The notes beneath the pieces are model-generated. The model was not told the origin of the DNA. It made no database searches and saw only the letters and a list, made by a program, of their open reading frames with translations. A stretch of DNA of 64,000 nucleotides, from assembly GCA_011125455.1 (NCBI GenBank), contig VKHO01000025.1, positions 138,724 through 202,723 on the forward strand, written 5' to 3'. The position numbers were made by a program, and so were the translations under genes. Origin of the DNA: Chlamydiales bacterium STE3 (lineage in GTDB: Bacteria > Chlamydiota > Chlamydiia > Chlamydiales > Parachlamydiaceae). The stretch's first letter is position 1; each line of letters starts with the position of its first letter. Below, piece after piece: positions 7,273 through 20,961 of the stretch.

Positions 7273-7833
7273 TTATGGTGCCATCTTTTGGTACTGATGA
7301 AGAAAGGAAGGACCGGCATGTCGCTCGCTAATTAAGCGTATAGTTTGCAACTTTTCGATCGGGTGCTTAGGAAGCACATCCTCAATAAAAAGCATCCCAT
7401 CTGTTTTTAAGAGAGGGGTTTTATCAAAAAATTGCAAAAGAAACAGGGAAGGAGCCTTTTCTTGAGTGTAGGGAGCATCTGCAAAGACAATGTCGAAAGG
7501 TGCTCTTGGTGCTAATTGATCTAATAACCGGAAAATATCCCCTTTTAAAATATTTGTTCTCGATTCTAACTGCAATGCCTTTGCATTGGCTTGGATACAG
7601 GAGATGGCTTCACGGCTGTTATCGATAAAAGTTACCTGGTCAGCCCCTCTGCTTAACGCTTCTAACCCCATAGCGCCGGAGCCTGCATAGAGATCTAAAA
7701 AGGTTGCTTCTTCGATATAGTGCTGGACAATATTAAAAAGAGCTTCCCGAAGTCGTGAGGAGGTGGGCCGAGTGGCAGCACCTTTCGGAGCCTGGATTTT
7801 GCGGCCTCGGCATTTACCGCTGATGATTTGCAT
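7273..7833 (-). CDS. rsmD: 16S rRNA (guanine966-N2)-methyltransferase RsmD
   Basis: MQIISGKCRGRKIQAPKGAATRPTSSRLREALFNIV N-terminus, a DLYAGSGAMGLEA SAM-binding motif and an FADAPY substrate motif. Confidence 0.85.
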   Translation of the reverse strand: MQIISGKCRGRKIQAPKGAATRPTSSRLREALFNIVQHYIEEATFLDLYAGSGAMGLEALSRGADQVTFIDNSREAISCIQANAKALQLESRTNILKGDIFRLLDQLAPRAPFDIVFADAPYTQEKAPSLFLLQFFDKTPLLKTDGMLFIEDVLPKHPIEKLQTIRLISERHAGPSFLHQYQKMAP

Positions 7834-9362: not shown

Positions 9363-10325
9363 TTATGTTCTTACCGCTTCTAAAGTTTCCGATTTTAGCT
9401 CTTCTTGATTAAATAACGTCAGCCCTAGAAAGACAATACCGGCAGAAAGATAGAATGGCCAAGTGATCGTTTCTCCCAGATACAGCCAGCCAAAAAAAGC
9501 AGCGAAAAGAGGGGTTGTGAAACCTGCAAACGACATGAAAGTTGCAGAGTAGTGCTTAAGTAACCAACCATATAAGTTATAGCAAATAAAATTTGAAACC
9601 AGAATTAAAACAAGCGTGCAAGTCAGAAAAGGGGCAAATTCTGTGACGGGAACCGGCGTCCAGCTTTCCACAAAAAAAGAGTGAATAAGAGCTATAGATC
9701 CGCCAATAAACATGCTCATGCCGTTAGCCATAATAGGAGAAAGGTGATTCTCTGAAACTAGCTGCTTAAGTAAGATCCAGCCATAGACGCTGCATAAGGC
9801 TGCCATAATGACAGAAATTTCTGCCCAGGAAAGAAAGAGAAAATGGCCTGTTGTTTCTTCTGAGGCTGTTTGGCTGAGCAAAATGGGAATGAATCCTGCA
9901 AAGCCAGTAATTAAACCAAGCCACTTTTTGGAGGTCATTCTTTCACCAAATACGAAGTAGGAGAGAAGCGCAGAGGTAAAAGGGGAAAGACTATAGATAA
10001 AGCAAGTTTTAAAAGAAGTTAGATACTTAAGCCCCCAGAATTCAAAGGCATTTGTCAAATAAATGGCGAAAAGGGCTAAGAGGGTCAGCCGCAGCAGATC
10101 TTTTTTGCGAAGAATAAAATGCTTTCTATGGAAAAGATATTGGTAACCTAAAAGTAGAGCCCCGGCAAAAAGCATCCGACTCCCTACGAGGAAAAGTGGT
10201 TCTGTATAATCTAAGGCTGTTTTAGCTGTTGTGAAAACACTTGCAAAAAGTGCATAGACTAAAATGACTAAAAACATATTATTATCTTCTTTTGAAGAAG
10301 AAGTATAAACAAACGCTTTAATCAT
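9363..10325 (-). CDS. DMT superfamily (EamA-like) transporter
   Basis: 320 aa with about 10 TM helices and two EamA-like halves. Confidence 0.7.
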   Translation of the reverse strand: MIKAFVYTSSSKEDNNMFLVILVYALFASVFTTAKTALDYTEPLFLVGSRMLFAGALLLGYQYLFHRKHFILRKKDLLRLTLLALFAIYLTNAFEFWGLKYLTSFKTCFIYSLSPFTSALLSYFVFGERMTSKKWLGLITGFAGFIPILLSQTASEETTGHFLFLSWAEISVIMAALCSVYGWILLKQLVSENHLSPIMANGMSMFIGGSIALIHSFFVESWTPVPVTEFAPFLTCTLVLILVSNFICYNLYGWLLKHYSATFMSFAGFTTPLFAAFFGWLYLGETITWPFYLSAGIVFLGLTLFNQEELKSETLEAVRT

Positions 10326-12156: not shown

Positions 12157-13335
12157 TTATTCACTTGCAGTATAGCTCTCTTGCTTGATGGCCTCCAAGA
12201 GTTTTTGTGTGCGATCAGTACGCTCCCAGGTAAATTCTTCTTCGCTTCTTCCAAAGTGTCCCCCAGAAGCTGTTTTTAAAAAGATAGGCCGTCTTAAATG
12301 CAACATGTGGATCATGCCTTTTGGAGTTAAGTCAAAGACTAGCGGTAGGGCCCGCGCGATGATGCTTTCTGCAATTTTTCCAGTTCCCATTGTATCAACA
12401 CGAATCGAGATAGGGTGGCAGATGCCAATGGCATAAGAAATTTGCACTTCGCATCTTTTCGCGAGTCCTGCTGCGATGATATTTTTAGCAACGTAACGAG
12501 CTGCATAGGCTCCGGAGCGGTCAACTTTAGAAGGGTCTTTTCCGGAAAAGGCGCCTCCGCCATGGCGGCCAATACCCCCATAAGTATCTACAATGATTTT
12601 TCTTCCAGTCAATCCGGTATCAGCATCAGGTCCTCCAATGACAAAGCGTCCTGTGGGATTGATATAGAAAAGGGTGTTGTCATCGATCATTCCTGGAGGA
12701 GCAATTGAGAGAATTAATTGCTTCATGTCAGTTGTAATTCTTTCCAGAGACGCTTCTTCTCGATGTTGTGTGGAAAGGATAACAGTATGAATACGCACAG
12801 GTTCATGTTTTTCGTTATACTCGACTGTGACCTGTGACTTAGCATCAGGAAGGAGATAGGGGAGTGTTTTGTTGATACGGTAAAGGTTGAGAGTGCTCAA
12901 AATTTTATTAGCAAATGACAAAGGCAAAGGCATAAGTTCCGGTGTTTCATCAGAGGCATAGCCATACATTAACCCTTGGTCGCCGGCCCCCAATTCTTTA
13001 AATTCACTCTCGTCTACACCGAGGGCAATGTCCGGAGATTGCCTATTTAGCGTAGCTAAAATTCCGCAAGTCCTATAATCAAACCCAAGTTTTGGATCAT
13101 CATAGCCTATGCCCTTGATGATAGAGCGTACTACGTCTTGATAAGAAATAGTTGCATTTGTTGTTATTTCTCCTGCAAGAAGCACAAGCCCTTTAGTCAC
13201 TAGTGTTTCGCAAGCAACTTTTGAATAAGGATCTTGCTCAAGGCAAGCATCTAAGATGCCGTCAGAAATTTGATCGGCAATTTTATCCGGATGTCCTTGA
13301 GAAACAGATTCTGAGGTATAAAGATAATGGCTCAT
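12157..13335 (-). CDS. metK: S-adenosylmethionine synthetase
   Basis: MSHYLYTSESVSQGHPDKIADQISDGILDA..., GGGAFSGKDPSKVDRSGAYAARYVAKN. Full-length MetK. Confidence 0.95.
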   Translation of the reverse strand: MSHYLYTSESVSQGHPDKIADQISDGILDACLEQDPYSKVACETLVTKGLVLLAGEITTNATISYQDVVRSIIKGIGYDDPKLGFDYRTCGILATLNRQSPDIALGVDESEFKELGAGDQGLMYGYASDETPELMPLPLSFANKILSTLNLYRINKTLPYLLPDAKSQVTVEYNEKHEPVRIHTVILSTQHREEASLERITTDMKQLILSIAPPGMIDDNTLFYINPTGRFVIGGPDADTGLTGRKIIVDTYGGIGRHGGGAFSGKDPSKVDRSGAYAARYVAKNIIAAGLAKRCEVQISYAIGICHPISIRVDTMGTGKIAESIIARALPLVFDLTPKGMIHMLHLRRPIFLKTASGGHFGRSEEEFTWERTDRTQKLLEAIKQESYTASE

Positions 13336-13428: not shown

Positions 13429-13905
13429 ATGGCCTGGTTTGTTTGCTCAGTTTTTTTCTTGTTTGGCAGTTTTTCAGCATCGCCTGGGGGTACGCTGCCT
13501 GTTTCTTTTGTAGAGTTGACCAAAGATCCAGATGTGGCAAAGCAATGGCATGAAAAGCCAGTTCTTCTCCGTGGATTCCTCTACCAAGATAAGCAAGGGC
13601 AGTGGATATTAGCTTCTGAACCTAATCTTAAAAGTTGCTGTGTTGGCTCAGAATCTAAGCGCACTCATCAAATTTTTGTGCAACCGAAAGGCGCTTTTAA
13701 AACAACTCCTAAATCAGCAGTGACATTAAAGGGGGAATTCACCGTTGATCCTCAGAATCGTTACAACTATGTATTAAAAAATGCCTATTTAACGGAGGGT
13801 AATGCCAACCTTCTGCATATGCTAATAGTAGGGTTTGTTCTGATAGGCGTCTTTTTTATTCTTTACGTCGTAAAATACTGTCTTGCTCTTTTCTCAACTC
13901 ACTGA
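13429..13905 (+). CDS. Hypothetical membrane-anchored protein
   Basis: 158 aa with an N-terminal signal/TM segment and a C-terminal TM helix. Confidence 0.45.
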   Translation: MAWFVCSVFFLFGSFSASPGGTLPVSFVELTKDPDVAKQWHEKPVLLRGFLYQDKQGQWILASEPNLKSCCVGSESKRTHQIFVQPKGAFKTTPKSAVTLKGEFTVDPQNRYNYVLKNAYLTEGNANLLHMLIVGFVLIGVFFILYVVKYCLALFSTH

Positions 13906-14724
13906 CTCATGCACTTTGAAAGGGAAAGCAATAGAAACTTTTTCCATTCCATCCTGGAAGAATTTTTGGCCAAGGAGTTGGAATTTTTCAGGGTTATCTG
14001 TCACAAAAAATTGGCCTGGTTGAGGACAATTTAGGGGCGTTTCTAGTTGACATTCCTGAAGAGTTTGCTTGACTCTTTCAGCACAAGTCGAGGCCGAATC
14101 TACAATGGCGATTTCAGGGCCTAAAAAATCCTGAATCTGTTCTTGTAGAATTGGATAGTGGGTGCAACCAAGCAGAAGCGTATCGATAGGGTGTGCTTTT
14201 AATGGTGCCAAATACTCCTCGATGAGCATTTGGGCTACTTGATGATGATGGAATCCCTCTTCAACTAGCGGGACAAATAAAGGACAGGCAATGGAAACAA
14301 CTTTAGCCTGCGGATTTAGCTCTTGTATTTTCCTTTCATAGGCTTTGGATCGAATGGTCCCTTTTGTCCCTATAACACCAATGTGATGATTTTTTGTCAC
14401 TTTGAGAGCTTGCTCGGCCCCAGGAGTGACGACGCCAATCACTGGAATATTGAAAATGTTTTGGATTTTAGAAAGGGCAAAAGCAGTTGCTGTATTGCAA
14501 GCAATGACAAAGACCTTAATGTTCTGTTCCATCAGAAAGATCGCATTTTCGATCGTATAGCGGATAATCGTTTCTGGGCTTTTTTCTCCGTAAGGAAGGC
14601 GTGCAGTATCGCCGAGATAGATGATTTTTTCATTGGGAAGAACCCTGGCAATTTGCTGCATCACAGTAAGGCCGCCAAGGCCTGAATCAAAGACCCCAAT
14701 GGCCTGTGTGCGTTTGGAGTTCAT
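13894..14724 (-). CDS. murI: Glutamate racemase
   Basis: GVFDSGLGGLTV...YLGDTARLPYG...ACNTA...GCTHYP motifs. Confidence 0.9.
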   Translation of the reverse strand: MNSKRTQAIGVFDSGLGGLTVMQQIARVLPNEKIIYLGDTARLPYGEKSPETIIRYTIENAIFLMEQNIKVFVIACNTATAFALSKIQNIFNIPVIGVVTPGAEQALKVTKNHHIGVIGTKGTIRSKAYERKIQELNPQAKVVSIACPLFVPLVEEGFHHHQVAQMLIEEYLAPLKAHPIDTLLLGCTHYPILQEQIQDFLGPEIAIVDSASTCAERVKQTLQECQLETPLNCPQPGQFFVTDNPEKFQLLGQKFFQDGMEKVSIAFPFKVHESVS

Positions 14725-15377
14725 GGCTTACAAGGGATTTTGAGCGTTTTGCCAACAATGATTTTATCAGAATGCATCCCGTTGAGGTCTTTTATGGCTT
14801 GAACGGAAGTTTGGTGCGCTTTAGCAATTTTGGCGAGGCTATCTCCATTTTTGACTTTATAAAAGGCGGTTTCTAAGCAGTCTGCTTTTCCTTGAAAGGC
14901 TTCTAAAAGTGAAGAGAGGGCATTTTGCATATTAGTTAGATTGCGATTTTGAAGGGCAATGGAACTTTCGAGCTCAGTGATTTTTTTTTGATAGGCTTTG
15001 ATTGCGGCGCTTGTTTCATTGGCATGGGTGGAGAATTGTTTAAGATCGGCAATCAGTGCTTTGTTGGACTGCTCAAGTTGTGCGATGCGTAACTCTAAAG
15101 ATTGGTTTTTTGTATTAAGGGACTCTTTTTGCTGCTCTTTGCTACTCCCCATCTCATCGCGAACCGCTTCAAGCATCACTTCAAAATTCAGCAAGCGTTC
15201 TTCAAACATTTTGATTTCAGACTTGCTGTTATTGAATTGATGCTGGAGGCGGCTGCATGTGCCTTGAAGATCATTGAGCGCAGCAGCCTGTTCCTTAGAA
15301 GCCTTACTGCTATAAGCTTCTATAAAAAAAGGCGCTTGAGCTAATAAAATAAAGGCTAGCAGTCGCTTAAAAATCAT
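14721..15377 (-). CDS. Secreted coiled-coil protein with a C-terminal LysM domain
   Basis: Signal peptide, long heptad-rich region, then YKVKNGDSLAKIAKAHQTSVQAIKDLNGMHSDKIIVGKTLKIP (LysM). Start and stop overlap pal and murI respectively. Confidence 0.7.
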   Translation of the reverse strand: MIFKRLLAFILLAQAPFFIEAYSSKASKEQAAALNDLQGTCSRLQHQFNNSKSEIKMFEERLLNFEVMLEAVRDEMGSSKEQQKESLNTKNQSLELRIAQLEQSNKALIADLKQFSTHANETSAAIKAYQKKITELESSIALQNRNLTNMQNALSSLLEAFQGKADCLETAFYKVKNGDSLAKIAKAHQTSVQAIKDLNGMHSDKIIVGKTLKIPCKP

Positions 15378-16147
15378 CTTTGATAGACTCGAAATTCAGC
15401 TCTTCTGTTTTGTGCCCATGCTTCATCATGGTGTTCGAAAATCACAGGACGTTCTTTACCATAGGAAATTGTAAATACACGATCTGGATTTGCTCCTTCG
15501 TTTATAAGCAAATTGCGTACAGAATTTGCCCTTTTAGCCCCTAATGTCAAGTTGTAAGCATCTGGACCTCTTTCGTCACAATGGCCTGCAACAAAAAGAT
15601 AGGTTTGAGGGTGTCTTTTGAGATATTGAGCTATTTTGCGGATTGTGGATAAATCTTCATCATCTTGGACAAGATTGCTATTGTAGGCAAAATGGATTGT
15701 GCGAAAGACGGCTGCAAGTTGAGGGTCCATTGCTGGATCTTTAAAAGCCTCAATTCCTGGGAGAGCGCTATTAGGATCACCCGGAATATCCCTTGGCTGG
15801 GGAGCCCGGTAGTCACCCATCGAGGGGTTTTCATTATAAACATCTGTAATAGGAATGTAGTCACTTTCGCTCATGTAGTTATCCTGAGGCATAAATTCTT
15901 CTCTGGCGCAGACTGCGCGAGAATCCCCGTGTTTCCCCCCTAATGAACGCATGCCGCGGTACATGTGGCGTTGTGCCGTTTGTGTGTCTTCCCAAACCTC
16001 GTTTCCTGAACGGTTACAACTTGATAAGGCTCCCGCTAAGGCGACAACGATTAATAGAAAAATTCTGTTGCTCATATTCCCTACCCTCTCCTTGAATTCA
16101 ACAAGCATGCTAACAAAATTTACATGGCAAGTCCACAGAAAATCCAA
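15374..16147 (-). CDS. pal: Peptidoglycan-associated lipoprotein Pal (OmpA family)
   Basis: Lipobox LSSC. The OmpA C-terminal domain reads IHFAYNSNLV...GHCDERGPDAYNLTLGAKRANSV...RRAEF. Confidence 0.85.
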   Translation of the reverse strand: MDFLWTCHVNFVSMLVEFKERVGNMSNRIFLLIVVALAGALSSCNRSGNEVWEDTQTAQRHMYRGMRSLGGKHGDSRAVCAREEFMPQDNYMSESDYIPITDVYNENPSMGDYRAPQPRDIPGDPNSALPGIEAFKDPAMDPQLAAVFRTIHFAYNSNLVQDDEDLSTIRKIAQYLKRHPQTYLFVAGHCDERGPDAYNLTLGAKRANSVRNLLINEGANPDRVFTISYGKERPVIFEHHDEAWAQNRRAEFRVYQR

Positions 16148-16231
16148 CGAAAAAGAAGGTTCTTTGTAAAGGAGCTAACGTGAGAAATGGGTTTGATGGG
16201 TGGATTAGGCTTACACTGCTTTAACCTAAAA

Positions 16232-16270
16232 ATACTAAAGGCCAAACTCTCACGGCTTGGCCTTTAGTAT
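16232..16270 (-). terminator. Strong hairpin (14 bp perfect stem) between the inserted membrane-protein gene and pal
   Basis: atactaaaggccaa / ttggcctttagtat inverted repeat with an 11 nt loop. Confidence 0.4.
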
Positions 16271-16340
16271 CTATTCTTTTACTCTCCCAGCCCGATAACC
16301 CGTAAACGTTAAGGTTACAGGGCAGAGAATGGATCGGAAT

Positions 16341-17459
16341 TTAAGGAGTAATTACTTTAATTTTTTTATGAAAACGTGTGTCAGCATACAAATCAAAACC
16401 CATTTTAAAGAGGTTAATTGCAAACAATATTGTTAAAATGCCAAGACCACTGATGGCTAAAGGAGCAAATAGTGGGCTAAAGAGAAAGAGTGCAGTGGCA
16501 ATAAGACCTAACTTAGTTGTTAAAATACTCAAAACGCTTGAAAATTGTTTGTATTGAATCCGTGTTTTTAATGCCTCAAAAATTTGATCCATGCGCTTAT
16601 TGTACCCTGCCTTATCCCCATTATACTCAGAAGGGCGTCTAGCGTTATAAACACTTGTGATCTTTTTTTGGAGTAATTTAGTATCAACGCTGCAGTGGTT
16701 CTCTAAGAAATAATTTTGTTTTTTGAGAACACGGCAAGCACCCTTATAATCCGGTGTTTCCGGTGTATTAGGTTTTAGATACTTGTCTAATTTTTTAACC
16801 GTTTTCGAACTAAAATAAAGGCTTCTTGCATTCATTAAGATAGAGACAGATGAAAGGATAGTGCAGCCCACGCTGAGGGGCGTTGCCCAGCTCATAGCAG
16901 AAGCTCCAAGTGCGCCAAGCTCTACAAAAACGGTGGCAAGGGTGGAGGCTGCGTCACCTACATCGCTGATTCCACCAAGAACTCCTAAATACGCATCAAT
17001 TTTAGCTTCTCCTTGATTAGCAAAAAAGTCATGGCAACTCATTACGAGATTCTGCGCATCAAAAGGTAGGGAGAAGATACGGGTGAGTTCTGTTGCTGCA
17101 AAAGCTTTTGAAGCCCGAATAAGTGTGCCGAAGTAGGGGGTTACCAGTCCATACACGGCACGAGCTTCGCCACCGATCGTGTTCACCCATGATAAAGCAT
17201 CTCCACTTAGGATAAAGTTACGAGTTTTTTTTAATACCTTGGCACAAGAATGGCTCTTTTTTGTTTTTAAATTTTTTATAAAAAGCCCAGAATCGATTCT
17301 GGGAAGTTCCCATGGAATGGATGTTATTTCTGGTTTGTCATCCTTAGACCGAGAGACAATATTATAGAGATCGATAAAGCTTCTTTTAGGGCCATTAGAA
17401 TAATCTGAGAGACTTGAAGCTAACCTTGAAAGTGATGCTGAAGACATATTTTTCCCCAA
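16341..17459 (-). CDS. Hypothetical membrane protein with a bilobed hydrophobic domain (Inc-like), inserted between tolB and pal
   Basis: 372 aa. The C-terminal LGLIATALFLFSPLFAPLAISGLGILTILFAINLF is two hydrophobic lobes separated by a short turn, and a second Gly/Ala-rich hydrophobic stretch lies mid-protein. Confidence 0.55.
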   Translation of the reverse strand: MGKNMSSASLSRLASSLSDYSNGPKRSFIDLYNIVSRSKDDKPEITSIPWELPRIDSGLFIKNLKTKKSHSCAKVLKKTRNFILSGDALSWVNTIGGEARAVYGLVTPYFGTLIRASKAFAATELTRIFSLPFDAQNLVMSCHDFFANQGEAKIDAYLGVLGGISDVGDAASTLATVFVELGALGASAMSWATPLSVGCTILSSVSILMNARSLYFSSKTVKKLDKYLKPNTPETPDYKGACRVLKKQNYFLENHCSVDTKLLQKKITSVYNARRPSEYNGDKAGYNKRMDQIFEALKTRIQYKQFSSVLSILTTKLGLIATALFLFSPLFAPLAISGLGILTILFAINLFKMGFDLYADTRFHKKIKVITP

Positions 17460-17552
17460 AAAAATTAATGATAGAGATCTTACTTTTAGATACTCACGCG
17501 GTGAAATCGAATAACAACTTACAGAAGAGATCGCTTATAGGCAAGGAATTAT

Positions 17553-18932
17553 TTATTTTTTTCGTGGTTCCCAGGAAGGGAATCGTTTGTCGCCTTTTCC
17601 GCTAGTAATTTTAATCGCCTTTTTGTCATTCAGATTCAAAATATAAACATCTGCTTGGCCATCTTCTTGTAAAGAGTTAAAGGCAATATGCAGGCTGTTT
17701 GGAGCAAAGGTGGGATTTTCTTTGTGAAAAGCGCCGTCTGTCAATTGTTGCTCGCGCCCTGTTTCGAATTCATAAACCCAAATTTGACGTACTCCTTTAG
17801 TGAGGGCCGAATAGGCGATTTTTTTTCCATCAGGAGACCAACATGGAGATGTATTTTCGCGATTTTGTTTTGTTAGTAAAGTCGCTTTTAGGTTTTTGGC
17901 ATTGTCGTTTTTGGGGAGAACAAGAGTGTAGATACGTGGAGCGCCATCTTTATTTGATACAAAAGCGAGCTTTGCCCCATCAGGGCTAAACGTGGGTGTA
18001 GCTTGCGTTCCATAAGCCGCGGTGAAAAGCTGGATCGGTTTCCCAACTGGCCCTTTTTCAGGGTCTAATGCTTGGATAAAAAGATCAGGGTTTCCTGTTA
18101 CATCGCAAATAAAAGCAAGTTTGTCTCTCGCCGGAGCAATCGCCGGCATAAATTGATTGCCTTTTAACAAGCTAAATCGTGTTATTTGACCATTTGCAAG
18201 ATTGCCAAAATAAATTTTTGGCTGGCCTGACTTGTAGGAAACAAAGGCAAAGTCGCGGGAGGGGCTCCCTTCTTTCGATGGGAAGTAGCAGGGCGATACA
18301 CAGAGTGCTTGTTGCTCTGTCACTACTTGAGCATTACCGCCATCATAGTCAGCTTCTACTACTTCTGAAGTGCTTTTCCCGGTACGCGGATCCTTGACTT
18401 TAATGGTATAGAGCAATTTTGTTTGTGCAATCCCTTCTTGGTTAAACAGCGCTTTAAAGATTAAATCAGCTAAAAGGTGCATTTTCTTGCGATCCTCTAT
18501 AAAACTGCCCGATAGGGGGAGCCCTTCTATTTTTTTTATGCTATCTGTATTTGCTAAAAATAATTTTGCTCCGAGCTGCCCATTGGAAATTTGCGTTTTA
18601 ATGGCGTAATAAACACGGTGTTGCTTCCACGCTGAAGCTTTTTCTGGATGCTGGAAGTTAATTGAAGCATCGAGCTTTGCCATCTCTTTGGTCGGTTTGA
18701 CAACATAGGTCATGCCATTAAAGTTTAAGTCATTGCGTAGAATACTTTCTAATTTTTTGAGATATTCGGAACTAAAGCCGGACTGCACATCTTGTAAAGG
18801 AGAAAGATAAAGAGGAAGCAGTTGATTTTCTGTTGTTAAATTGACGATAATCGGGTCATTTTCTGATGCATGAGAAAAGCCTATAACAGTCAAAATAAAA
18901 AACATGCAAAGTTGAAAAAATGCTGTTGCCAT
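17553..18932 (-). CDS. tolB: Tol-Pal system beta-propeller protein TolB
   Basis: Signal peptide, N-terminal TolB domain, then a WD-like propeller with repeated xPxFSPDG and xPxWSPDG motifs (FSPDGAKLAF, WSPDGKKIAY). Confidence 0.9.
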   Translation of the reverse strand: MATAFFQLCMFFILTVIGFSHASENDPIIVNLTTENQLLPLYLSPLQDVQSGFSSEYLKKLESILRNDLNFNGMTYVVKPTKEMAKLDASINFQHPEKASAWKQHRVYYAIKTQISNGQLGAKLFLANTDSIKKIEGLPLSGSFIEDRKKMHLLADLIFKALFNQEGIAQTKLLYTIKVKDPRTGKSTSEVVEADYDGGNAQVVTEQQALCVSPCYFPSKEGSPSRDFAFVSYKSGQPKIYFGNLANGQITRFSLLKGNQFMPAIAPARDKLAFICDVTGNPDLFIQALDPEKGPVGKPIQLFTAAYGTQATPTFSPDGAKLAFVSNKDGAPRIYTLVLPKNDNAKNLKATLLTKQNRENTSPCWSPDGKKIAYSALTKGVRQIWVYEFETGREQQLTDGAFHKENPTFAPNSLHIAFNSLQEDGQADVYILNLNDKKAIKITSGKGDKRFPSWEPRKK

Positions 18933-18933
18933 C

Positions 18934-19788
18934 TTACGTTCCTATCATAGTAATGGTAAAGGTGTAGTTTTCTACGTTACCAAACTGTTTTCCTAAACAA
19001 GGCATTGTATGCCGAAGCAGAGTTTTTTCAACATATTTTCTATTTAAAGAGCTTTCCGAGGAAAGAATTTCCAATTTTTTTATTGTGCCGTTTTTTTCAA
19101 TAGTGAGCTTTACATTAATTTCACCCATTTCGGGTAACCGAAGCAGCAGTTTTAAACGACTAGCAAGTTCTTCACGATAAAAAATCTCATTTTCTGAGAG
19201 TGATTCTGAAGTTAAAGAGACGCTTACGCTTTGCAAAGTTCCGATTTGGCTAACGGTCGGGATACTGTCGGAGGGCTCCTTGGAGCTGGTTATTTTTTTG
19301 CCCGTCTCAACTTTTCCAAGGCTAGCTTGGGCCTTAGCTAGCAATTGCTGCTTTAGGGATGAAGTTTGTGTTGGAGGAAAAGAGGGGGTTGGCCTTGCCG
19401 GCTTTTCGGAGGAGGATTGTTTTTTTGGTGTTTTAACGGGTTTTTTTTCTTCCTTTTTGGGAAGGATTTTAGGTTTTGGCTTTGGTTGCGTCTTAGGCGC
19501 ACTCTGCTGCAGTTTTTCTGTGGGCTTAACCTCAGTTTCTTTTGCTGTTTGAGGTAAAGAAATAGAGGGGGTTTCTGCTACTTCAGGCTTATTTTGGCTC
19601 GTTTCCTGCTTTAGAACCGGGGGCGAAGCAGGCGCTTCTCTTGGTTTTAAACGAATTGTAGTGACAGCGAGTTTGGTTTTTAACGGCATTTGGAGGGGAC
19701 TTGAGAGACTAAAAAAGTAGAGGAAAAGGGCGTGTACAGTAAAAACAATTCCGCAACAAACAGCTAAGGGGAAATTTATGGGTTTCAT
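18934..19788 (-). CDS. TolA/TonB-like energy-transducer protein (TM anchor, Pro/Lys-rich linker, C-terminal domain)
   Basis: N-terminal TM helix and a KPxxKPKPKILPKKEEKKP linker, positioned between tolR and tolB. Confidence 0.7.
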   Translation of the reverse strand: MKPINFPLAVCCGIVFTVHALFLYFFSLSSPLQMPLKTKLAVTTIRLKPREAPASPPVLKQETSQNKPEVAETPSISLPQTAKETEVKPTEKLQQSAPKTQPKPKPKILPKKEEKKPVKTPKKQSSSEKPARPTPSFPPTQTSSLKQQLLAKAQASLGKVETGKKITSSKEPSDSIPTVSQIGTLQSVSVSLTSESLSENEIFYREELASRLKLLLRLPEMGEINVKLTIEKNGTIKKLEILSSESSLNRKYVEKTLLRHTMPCLGKQFGNVENYTFTITMIGT

Positions 19789-19799
19789 TTAAGGATTTA

Positions 19800-20213
19800 T
19801 TAACTGGGTTTCAAGATTAAATCCATCTCTTCAAAGCCTGAGACTTCCAAGGCTGTTTTCACCTCTTGGTAGGTTCCAAAAAAAGCTTTTTTATCATGAA
19901 AGAGCTGCGGTTTTGCACTTGGATAAGCTTTTTTAAGTTCGATAAGCCGATCTGTGAATTGCGCTGGGATTGTCACGGCTTGATTGATTCTGACAGAATT
20001 ATCGCTTCGCACTTCAATGATTACAGGGCTTTTCTGATTCACACTAGAAACTTCTTTAGCAGCAGGTGAGGATCTAGGAAGTTCGATTTTCTCCATTTCC
20101 AAAAGAGGGGCAATAACAATAAACATAATTAAAATGACAAAGACAACATCGATAAGAGGTGTTAAATTGATAGAGGGCTCTTCTTCTATTACTCTTCTTT
20201 GAAAAAATCGCAT
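19800..20213 (-). CDS. tolR: ExbD/TolR biopolymer transport protein
   Basis: INLTPLIDVVFVILIMFIV motif. 137 aa. Confidence 0.85.
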   Translation of the reverse strand: MRFFQRRVIEEEPSINLTPLIDVVFVILIMFIVIAPLLEMEKIELPRSSPAAKEVSSVNQKSPVIIEVRSDNSVRINQAVTIPAQFTDRLIELKKAYPSAKPQLFHDKKAFFGTYQEVKTALEVSGFEEMDLILKPS

Positions 20214-20226
20214 GTCCTAAGAACCT

Positions 20227-20961
20227 TTAATTTAAATCAACTTTTCTGTAGCGCATTTCGAGCGTTGCTAAAAGCTCCCTTGAAAAACTGATCATGTCGG
20301 TTTCAAAGTCTTTCAAAGAATTTTTTAAATAATTATAGCCAATGAGCGCAGGAATTGCGTCAATAAGCCCAAGAACAGTTGTTGCAAGAGCGAGGGAGAG
20401 CCCATTTAAAACTGTTTGGTGTGCTGGTCCTCCCTGAGCTTGCAGTTCAGAAAATGTTGTTAAAATTCCCCAGACTGTTCCGAGCAACCCTAAAAAAGGA
20501 GCAAGGGTAATAATCGTAGCCAAGATAAAAAGATTTTGCTCTAAATGCTTGCTTTCTTTAGACACTGTTGTAAGTAGCTTTGCCTCGACACAATCGATAT
20601 CCCCCTGGGAGAGGAAAGAAGTTTCAGCGGTAGCATGTTGGTGTTTAAGAAAATGATGATTTTTATTAAGGAGTTCTAAAGAGACCTTTTTTAAAGAGAG
20701 ATAGATCTCCTTGAAAGAACTAGAGGGTACCGTAATGTCATGGTCGAGATTAAGAACTTGCCCTTTCTGTTTTTCTAGCCTTTCTTTGAATTTAAAAGAA
20801 TTTTTCTTAGTAATTAAAGTCTGGCGAGTCTTATATATAATGATTATCCAACTTAAAATAGATAAGATAATTAATCCGATAAAAATTAGTTTACCTAGAA
20901 AGTCGGAATGAATATAAGAATCAAAGAAAGGGTTGTTAATTAATAAAATTTTTAGTAACAT
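20227..20961 (-). CDS. tolQ: MotA/TolQ/ExbB proton-channel protein
   Basis: GLLGTVWGILTTF...GPAHQTVLNGLSLALATTVLGL... conserved TM2-3 region. Confidence 0.85.
   Translation of the reverse strand: MLLKILLINNPFFDSYIHSDFLGKLIFIGLIILSILSWIIIIYKTRQTLITKKNSFKFKERLEKQKGQVLNLDHDITVPSSSFKEIYLSLKKVSLELLNKNHHFLKHQHATAETSFLSQGDIDCVEAKLLTTVSKESKHLEQNLFILATIITLAPFLGLLGTVWGILTTFSELQAQGGPAHQTVLNGLSLALATTVLGLIDAIPALIGYNYLKNSLKDFETDMISFSRELLATLEMRYRKVDLN

Follow-up and report, generated by a model that had tools for sequence, protein, structure and literature searches.

The DNA examined here is a stretch of 64,000 nucleotides (hereafter the window; contig VKHO01000025.1, positions 138,724 to 202,723 of the forward strand, assembly GCA_011125455.1) from Chlamydiales bacterium STE3, an Acanthamoeba endosymbiont that together with strain HS-T3 forms a separate Parachlamydiaceae-affiliated lineage (PMC7225534). 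Its minus strand carries, in order, tolQ, tolR, a tolA-like gene, tolB, an inserted open reading frame (ORF), pal, a LysM gene and murI. A preliminary description of this DNA had placed an extra ORF after tolQ-tolR-tolA-like-tolB and ahead of pal, and the same arrangement was obtained from the ORF map and from Pfam searches of the flanking genes. The protein encoded by the inserted ORF was 100% identical to PHSC3_000884 of STE3, an entry of 368 residues named hypothetical protein. It was characterized from its homologues, an AlphaFold model and substitution rates, and is predicted to end in a two-lobed hydrophobic hairpin.

Gene order and flanking genes

All genes of the cluster lie on the minus strand. 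Upstream of the inserted gene, tolQ was located at 20227-20961 (Pfam MotA_ExbB, E 1.7e-29), tolR at 19800-20213 (ExbD, E 7.7e-19) and tolB at 17553-18932 (PD40 repeats, E 6e-28; 100% match to 'Protein TolB [Chlamydiales bacterium STE3]'). The tolA-like gene (18934-19788) encodes an N-terminal transmembrane segment, a Pro/Lys-rich linker and a C-terminal domain, and its position was kept in all loci. Its protein was searched against Pfam without a match; in NCBIfam it gave a weak match to Chlamy_inclu_1, 'inclusion-associated protein' (E 2.9e-5; 24.5 bits, where the cut-off is 200), and a weak TonB match (E 0.002) far under the cut-off. A spacer of 105 nucleotides (17448-17552) without terminator-like structure separates tolB from the inserted gene (16341-17447, within a maximal ORF reaching 17459). 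Downstream, pal (15374-16075, start revised as described below) encodes a 233-residue lipoprotein (OmpA, E 2.4e-17; lipobox LSSC). Its stop codon is overlapped by the gene for a coiled-coil LysM protein (14721-15377; LysM, E 6e-16), which was found after pal in almost all loci compared, and this gene is overlapped by murI, encoding glutamate racemase (13894-14724; Asp_Glu_race, E 2e-21).

Predicted product of the inserted gene

The length of 372 residues first given for the ORF holds for the maximal reading from a TTG codon. The NCBI entry has 368 residues, and the true start is probably the ATG at 17447, as judged from the annotation and from homologues beginning MSS.S; GGGGAA lies upstream of it.

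A C-terminal two-lobed hydrophobic segment, LGLIATALFLFSPLFAPLAISGLGILTILFAINLF (35 residues, 313-347 of 368; 16407-16511, minus strand), was delimited by Kyte-Doolittle hydropathy and by AlphaFold. Over this segment the 19-residue window peaks at 2.32 (transmembrane threshold 1.6), and the 11-residue profile has two peaks, of 2.5 and 2.55, with lobes at residues 313-325 and 329-347. The AlphaFold2 model built from a 43-sequence family alignment (predicted local distance difference test score (pLDDT) 81.9, predicted template modelling score 0.74) replaced an earlier, poor model from six sequences (pLDDT 56.5) and was helical throughout after residue 60. In it the helix is broken at residues 323-327, giving H279-322 and H328-365 as a helix-turn-helix. 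Hydropathy and model thus both recovered the bilobed C-terminal segment of about 35 residues that had been proposed. The full transmembrane hairpin was placed at approximately residues 302-351 (nucleotides 16395-16544, minus strand), with positive charges on both sides (RIQYK ... KMGF..RFHKKIK). The hydrophobic segment was retained in orthologues of only 27-28% identity (loci L008, L011 and L061) and is for that reason not attributed to chance.

The best-conserved part of the protein was a central helical hairpin (residues 147-224; 16776-17009, minus strand), rich in Gly, Ala and Ser and moderately hydrophobic: its hydropathy reaches 2.0 in the 11-residue window and stays below 1.6 in the 19-residue window. 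AlphaFold modelled it as helices H147-176, H182-198 and H201-224, and its invariant residues include D151, G155, G158, S161, G164, D165, G178, P190 and L191.

The N-terminal 60 residues (17268-17447, minus strand) were predicted to be disordered (pLDDT <50) and were variable, Ser-rich and unalignable between orthologues. The N-terminus is polar and without a signal peptide, the C-terminal hairpin being the sole strong hydrophobic segment. Over residues 2-25, Ser, Thr and Pro together made up 42% in STE3 and 28% in the family, compared to 18% in the background, and Leu was halved (Mann-Whitney P 4e-27). A disordered N-terminus rich in Ser, Thr and Pro and poor in Leu is of the composition typical of type III secretion signals; from composition alone, these 60 residues are a candidate signal of this type.

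Searches of Pfam, NCBIfam, PHROGs and PDB with the STE3 protein and with 43 family members returned no specific match; the weak matches in the first three were driven by the transmembrane hairpin (DUF2207_C, DUF2721). Foldseek returned nothing below E 0.07, with template modelling (TM) scores of at most 0.28.

Selection and rate of change

The ratio of nonsynonymous to synonymous substitution rates (dN/dS) was calculated between the orthologues of HS-T3 and of the metagenome-assembled genome (MAG) JB084, a comparison in which dS was approximately 1.2-1.9 and close to saturation. For the inserted gene it was 0.12, at 73% amino acid identity, and for its neighbours 0.066 (tolB), 0.026 (pal) and 0.148 (tolA-like). 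Because dN/dS is 0.12, the inserted gene is judged to be real and functional and to be under purifying selection. Between STE3 and HS-T3, amino acid identity was 51% for the inserted protein, 68% for TolB, 83% for Pal and 46% for the tolA-like protein. On these sequence comparisons the inserted gene is estimated to change faster than its housekeeping neighbours with the exception of the tolA-like gene, which evolves as fast as the insert by both measures. The guanine plus cytosine (GC) content of the inserted gene was 0.37-0.45, similar to that of the flanks.

The tolB-pal junction across chlamydiae

Synteny was compared at 83 non-redundant loci, comprising 80 species-representative tolB loci, the window and the metagenomic contigs L004 and L005, with the genes neighbouring tolB mapped by tblastn. 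The gap between tolB and pal was 450 nucleotides or less at 51 of the 83 loci (median 83 nucleotides), among them genomes labelled Simkania, Waddlia and Rhabdochlamydia, which agrees with the statement that tolB normally abuts pal. The gap was 596 nucleotides at one locus and 900 or more at 16; pal was missing within at least 3 kb downstream of tolB at 8, and at 7 the contig was too short to judge.

With the family profile, a member was found in the tolB-pal gap at only 8 of the 83 loci and not at the other 75, which include the 51 short-gap loci. Besides STE3 as the reference, the carriers were HS-T3, MAG JB084, L004 and L005 at 44-51% identity, and L008, L011 and L061 at 27-28% identity (blastp E 1e-29 to 1e-37). 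The eight form a single clade on a neighbour-joining tree of TolB. The insert is consequently not universal between tolB and pal, and its description as lineage-specific was upheld: most chlamydiae lack it at the junction, and its carriers are one clade. As the carriers are monophyletic on the TolB tree, we infer one old insertion in an ancestor common to the STE3/HS-T3 clade and its nearest relatives, with vertical descent thereafter.

Eight other long gaps were found to hold unrelated genes, which is why the junction is regarded as an insertion hot spot. These inserts were located in L012 (7323-11332), L013 (7353-10378), L016 (7353-9169), L020 (7341-8795), L036 (1575-5348), L042 (7305-8932), L047 (6369-7318) and L073 (7284-10432). 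Their cargo includes a Fic/DOC protein, a GNAT/CN-hydrolase fusion, an ankyrin-repeat protein, an HAD hydrolase, a zinc alcohol dehydrogenase and TPR proteins, the last as two paralogues in L036 and one in L042. CpoB of E. coli has a TPR domain, and by this analogy the TPR inserts might be counterparts of CpoB. A profile search and the Pfam domains of these inserts ruled them out as distant members of the STE3 family. Two of them contain short ORFs with the look of classic inclusion membrane proteins (Incs) that share no sequence relationship with the STE3 family: 197 residues in L047 (6484-7077, minus strand), with a hydrophobic stretch of 52 residues, and 228 residues in L012 (8751-9437, plus strand), with one of 41 residues.

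A separate observation was made in L052, a contig labelled Waddlia chondrophila, in which the tolB-pal spacer of 384 nucleotides (approximately 7290-7671) contains three full copies of the tandem repeat CCCTTAGTATTAGAAATA, with partial copies at the flanks; the array is enclosed by a long inverted repeat (GCACTTACGATCGTTCAGCC...).

Predicted transcription units at the junction

The spacer between tolB and the inserted gene was predicted to be unstructured as RNA (-12.6 kcal/mol, z +0.87); a scan found no terminator site in it, and neither scanning nor visual inspection showed a convincing promoter. Distant orthologues begin 10-30 nucleotides past tolB or overlap it. For these reasons the inserted gene is likely to be co-transcribed with tolQRAB.

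Two stem-loops follow the inserted gene on the minus strand. The first after the stop codon (16281-16330) had a folding energy of -21.6 kcal/mol (z -3.15). The second (16225-16272) begins approximately 70 nucleotides past the stop codon and has perfect 14-nucleotide arms (16232-16245 and 16257-16270) set 11 nucleotides apart; in the RNA fold the stem lengthens to about 19 pairs (-26.1 kcal/mol, z -7.5), and UUUUU comes directly after it. The strong 14 bp hairpin of the preliminary description is therefore present, and, with its stem-loop and U-run downstream of the stop codon, it takes the predicted form of an intrinsic (Rho-independent) terminator. A consensus terminator scan missed it because the 11-nucleotide spacing of the arms exceeds the loop limit of 8. 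Hairpins of differing sequence were found after the stop codon of the orthologue in L001, L003, L004, L005 and L011, two of them textbook terminators with T-runs. The possibility that the STE3 hairpin is a dispersed repeat was ruled out, its arm not being repeated elsewhere in the window, and an Rfam search of the spacers gave no significant RNA family.

The start of pal is most likely the ATG at 16075 (MSNRIFLLIVVALAGALSSC, lipobox) and not the TTG at 16147; homologues of pal are 233-235 residues long and can be aligned from residue 1. The 24-codon extension that a start at 16147 would add (window 16076-16147, minus strand) holds a conserved promoter box. This box (16107-16135, minus strand) was conserved in STE3, L001, L003, L004, L005 and L011 and consists of a -35 element, TGGACT (16130-16135), a spacing of 17 nucleotides and a -10 element, TAGCAT (16107-16112), with TG at 16114-16115 (-15/-14). 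The -10 element ends 31 nucleotides ahead of the ATG at 16075. Across the six genomes an invariant block, T.T.GACTT followed after about 11 nucleotides by A.TTTTG.TA..AT, was recognized in a spacer that could not otherwise be aligned. A strict consensus promoter scan passed over the box, in which 8 of 12 hexamer positions match; it is nevertheless predicted to fit a promoter of sigma-70/sigma-66 type with an extended -10. In JB084 the family member is separated from pal by a spacer of 527 nucleotides (L003, 7075-7601), compared to 144-265 in close relatives; it contains no called gene, and the pal promoter box is kept at its 3' end.

In 34 of 67 loci the extended -10 motif TGnTAnn[AT]T was present 34-108 nucleotides upstream of pal, with 5% expected (binomial P ~1e-25), and many of the 34 have no insert. 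Loci without the motif mostly have tolB-pal gaps below about 100 nucleotides, and on the TolB tree many of them lie in the other major branches. Such a distribution suggests that pal has its own promoter in Parachlamydiaceae-like genomes and is co-transcribed with tolB elsewhere. Because the same motif lies upstream of pal in many insert-free genomes, the promoter would be older than the insertion. The earlier proposal that the hairpin obliges pal to use a separate promoter stands in part: pal does have a promoter-like box of its own, but the hairpin is not the reason for it, since the promoter predates the insert. The junction is best described, on these predictions, as a pre-existing operon boundary between the units tolQRAB and pal-lysM-murI, and an insertion that falls after one unit has ended and before the next begins would explain why the site tolerates cargo.

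Protein family, paralogues and other genes of the window

A HMMER profile of the family was searched against 1.84 billion representative proteins, yielding 215 clusters at E<=1e-3, 85 at E<=1e-10 and 26 at E<=1e-30. The majority of members are 280-470 residues long, with polar N-termini lacking a signal peptide, and a hydrophobic stretch of at least 28 residues near the C-terminus was present in 52 of 148 retrieved members under a strict criterion. Ten genomic contexts were examined, all of them chlamydial. Cluster look-ups gave only the name 'hypothetical protein', in one case from Parachlamydia acanthamoebae, and a word-indexed protein search with the family alignment returned known members only. 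From sequences and model, the family is described as previously undescribed, chlamydial, predominantly helical in prediction and putatively hairpin-anchored.

Members were found both at and away from the junction. P0131 starts 10 nucleotides after tolB, with an FKBP gene between it and pal; P0151, on the metagenomic contig L092, lies directly upstream of pal-lysM-murI with the tol genes missing upstream. The Parachlamydia acanthamoebae member CCB87175.1 is flanked by an aldo-keto reductase gene and ksgA. In three genomes, P0143, P0160 and P0173 are each arranged tail-to-tail (convergent) with a gene for a Ser/Thr kinase (Pkinase) of approximately 1000 residues. These pairs of distant paralogue and kinase were located at L086 5001-9495, L089 6001-10171 and L091 5001-9117; the kinases have 977-1028 residues, and the gene ends touch or overlap. 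P0173 is the second family copy in HS-T3, which has at least two members. A rough family tree groups the junction-linked members as one subfamily, with the remaining members outside it. Such a dispersed, paralogous and fast-evolving family is consistent, by analogy, with known effector families.

No family paralogue was found elsewhere in the 64-kb window. The window encodes a complete MetK (S-adenosylmethionine synthetase; 12157-13335, minus strand), with an EamA-type transporter close by (9363-10325, minus strand). C. trachomatis is not known to have metK and imports S-adenosylmethionine, so that the environmental lineage differs metabolically in encoding MetK. The interval separating metK from murI holds a 158-residue ORF (13429-13905, plus strand) that runs against both genes; its N-terminus is hydrophobic, and a transmembrane segment lies at its C-terminus. 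At the equivalent position the relatives L001 and L003 have an uncharacterized gene of 167 residues.

Interpretation

A family copy would have been inserted once at the boundary of tolQRAB and pal-lysM-murI and inherited vertically since. From the sequence, it would be read as the last gene of a tolQRAB transcript that stops at the hairpin (16225-16272), and pal-lysM-murI would start from its own extended -10 promoter (16107-16135). The protein would comprise about 60 disordered residues followed by some 300 residues folded into long, bundled helical hairpins, and the hydrophobic tip of the last hairpin (approximately 302-351) could cross a membrane twice, so that both ends would lie on the same side. 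In the least certain step, the protein would be exported by type III secretion through its N-terminus, its C-terminal hairpin would enter the inclusion membrane, and its helical domain would face the amoeba cytosol.

An Inc-like membrane protein, delivered by type III secretion and anchored at its C-terminus, is put forward as the best reading, tentatively and at somewhat less than even confidence. The support for this reading, and for the secreted membrane effector suggested in the preliminary description, consists of the two-helix hydrophobic hairpin, the lack of relatives or conserved prokaryotic domains outside chlamydiae and the disordered, Leu-poor N-terminus rich in Ser, Thr and Pro. 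The criteria used to predict Incs in silico are two transmembrane helices, a loop of fewer than 30 residues, no conserved prokaryotic domain and restriction to chlamydiae (Dehoux et al., PMC3048545). In the STE3 protein two predicted transmembrane helices joined by a loop of under 30 residues were found, together with restriction to chlamydiae and no conserved prokaryotic domain. C-terminal bilobed domains are known from CT618, IncB and IncC, which are listed among the Incs seen on the inclusion membrane (PMC3048545), and a type III apparatus is encoded by the STE3 genome (PMC7225534).

Several points weigh against an Inc. The dip between the two lobes is shallow, falling to about 1.2 at a Pro-rich SPLFAP turn. 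Several bilobed proteins stay with the bacteria, so that a bilobed domain is no guarantee of inclusion localization, and most candidates from C. trachomatis and C. pneumoniae have the domain at approximately residues 30-90, with CT618, CT135, CT837 and IncB/IncC as exceptions (PMC3048545); in the STE3 protein the hydrophobic domain is at residues 302-351 of 368 and not at this usual N-terminal position. The gene has been kept beside tolB or pal across deep divergence, probably co-transcribed with tolB, and one metagenomic contig retains it next to pal even with the tol genes missing upstream. This lasting linkage could reflect a functional tie to the envelope system. The TolB and family trees, moreover, are both neighbour-joining trees without support values.

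These last observations on linkage bear directly on a second explanation, that of an inner-membrane protein that remains in the bacterium, anchored by its C-terminal hairpin with its bulk in the cytoplasm, and accessory to the Tol-Pal, division or peptidoglycan machinery. It is regarded as possible, and as less probable than the Inc-like reading. The place beside tolB or pal is held from approximately 73% down to 27% identity, and L092 retains the gene directly upstream of pal-lysM-murI. Co-transcription with tolB is probable, given the unstructured spacer and the distant orthologues that begin 10-30 nucleotides away or overlap; the gene is under purifying selection; the positive charges flanking the hairpin fit an in-in topology; and bilobed proteins are sometimes not exported (PMC3048545). 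Against this, the junction also takes plainly unrelated cargo, so that position alone is weak evidence of function, and paralogues occur at unrelated genomic places. Most chlamydiae with a complete tol-pal cluster lack the gene (absent from 75 of 83 junctions), so that it is not present wherever the system occurs, and no domain match was obtained that would relate it to YbgC, TolQ, TolR, TolA, TolB, Pal or CpoB. Known partners of Tol-Pal act in the periplasm, whereas the STE3 protein has a polar N-terminus, no signal peptide and no periplasmic or envelope-exposed domain. Its dN/dS is also about twice that of TolB and five times that of Pal.

A membrane-remodelling protein of PspA/ESCRT-III type, forming a helical-hairpin polymer on the membrane, is unlikely. 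PspA was the sole match in a PDB sequence-profile search, at a non-significant E of 0.59 over about 90 residues aligned at 5-10% identity; the Foldseek results given above also weigh against it, and PspA/ESCRT-III proteins are not known to have a transmembrane hairpin. Least probable of all is that the insert arrived recently as mobile or foreign cargo, or that the ORF is spurious or decaying: a conserved cluster is interrupted at what appears to be an insertion hot spot, but such an origin is very unlikely in view of the flank-like GC content, the unrepeated hairpin arm and the lack of any transposase or flanking repeats seen, the absence of a phage family match in PHROGs, the monophyletic carriers with vertical divergence, the dN/dS of 0.12 and the confident structure model.

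If the STE3 protein, as an Inc-like protein, does reach the inclusion membrane, it would represent an undescribed Inc-type family of approximately 215 sequence clusters in environmental chlamydiae, in which few Incs are known and the majority have no homologues in pathogens. A wider proposal is set out here as doubtful. The tolB-pal boundary of Parachlamydiaceae-like chlamydiae would be a long-lived landing site for host-interaction genes that ride on tol transcription (Fic, ankyrin and TPR proteins, Inc-like hairpin proteins and the STE3 family), and the family would be a new C-terminally anchored class of inclusion-membrane protein whose production keeps pace with envelope growth and division. 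As an alternative, the protein may be a previously unknown, lineage-specific partner of the chlamydial Tol-Pal or division machinery on its cytoplasmic side; should the protein stay in the bacterium, the Tol-Pal and peptidoglycan cluster of organisms not known to divide with FtsZ would have gained a lineage-specific component. Either reading is incremental and introduces no new principle. The locus offers a clean example of accessory genes entering a conserved envelope operon at an old transcription boundary, with no predicted disturbance of pal expression, and the points added here are that this boundary appears to capture accessory genes repeatedly and that the predicted pal promoter is older than the insert.

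Comparison with known systems

The closest likeness is to Incs with a C-terminal bilobed domain (CT618, IncB, IncC). In both, a short turn of about 5-6 residues connects two hydrophobic helices; in CT618 the domain is [213-236]6[242-262] of 266 residues (PMC3048545). Both also have a polar N-terminus without a signal peptide, a largely helical soluble part, restriction to chlamydiae, fast evolution and no conserved domains. The STE3 protein differs in its shallow inter-lobe dip and in having a second, weaker hydrophobic hairpin in mid-protein, and its gene lies inside a housekeeping envelope cluster with which it is probably co-transcribed. No sequence relationship to named Incs was found by Pfam among 43 family members. 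Membership of the IncA family was ruled out on the same searches, Pfam including an IncA model.

For environmental chlamydiae, totals of 23 (Heinz et al. 2010) and 76 (Dehoux et al.) predicted Incs are given, and pc0156, pc0399, pc0530 and pc1111 are putative Incs of Protochlamydia amoebophila (PMC3290821, PMC3048545). The STE3 protein is like these in host type (symbionts of Acanthamoeba, Parachlamydiaceae) and in the logic of prediction, as compared by description.

Like the proteobacterial tol-pal accessory genes ybgC and cpoB/ybgF, the inserted gene is non-core, lies in or next to tolQRAB-pal and is variably present. It has no homology to them and encodes neither a thioesterase nor a TPR domain; it lies between tolB and pal, whereas they lie at the cluster ends, and the bulk of its product is predicted to be cytoplasmic or exported, not periplasmic. 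Taking sequence and model together, the inserted gene is best placed beside the C-terminal bilobed Incs, as an uncharacterized chlamydial, hairpin-anchored candidate of Inc type.

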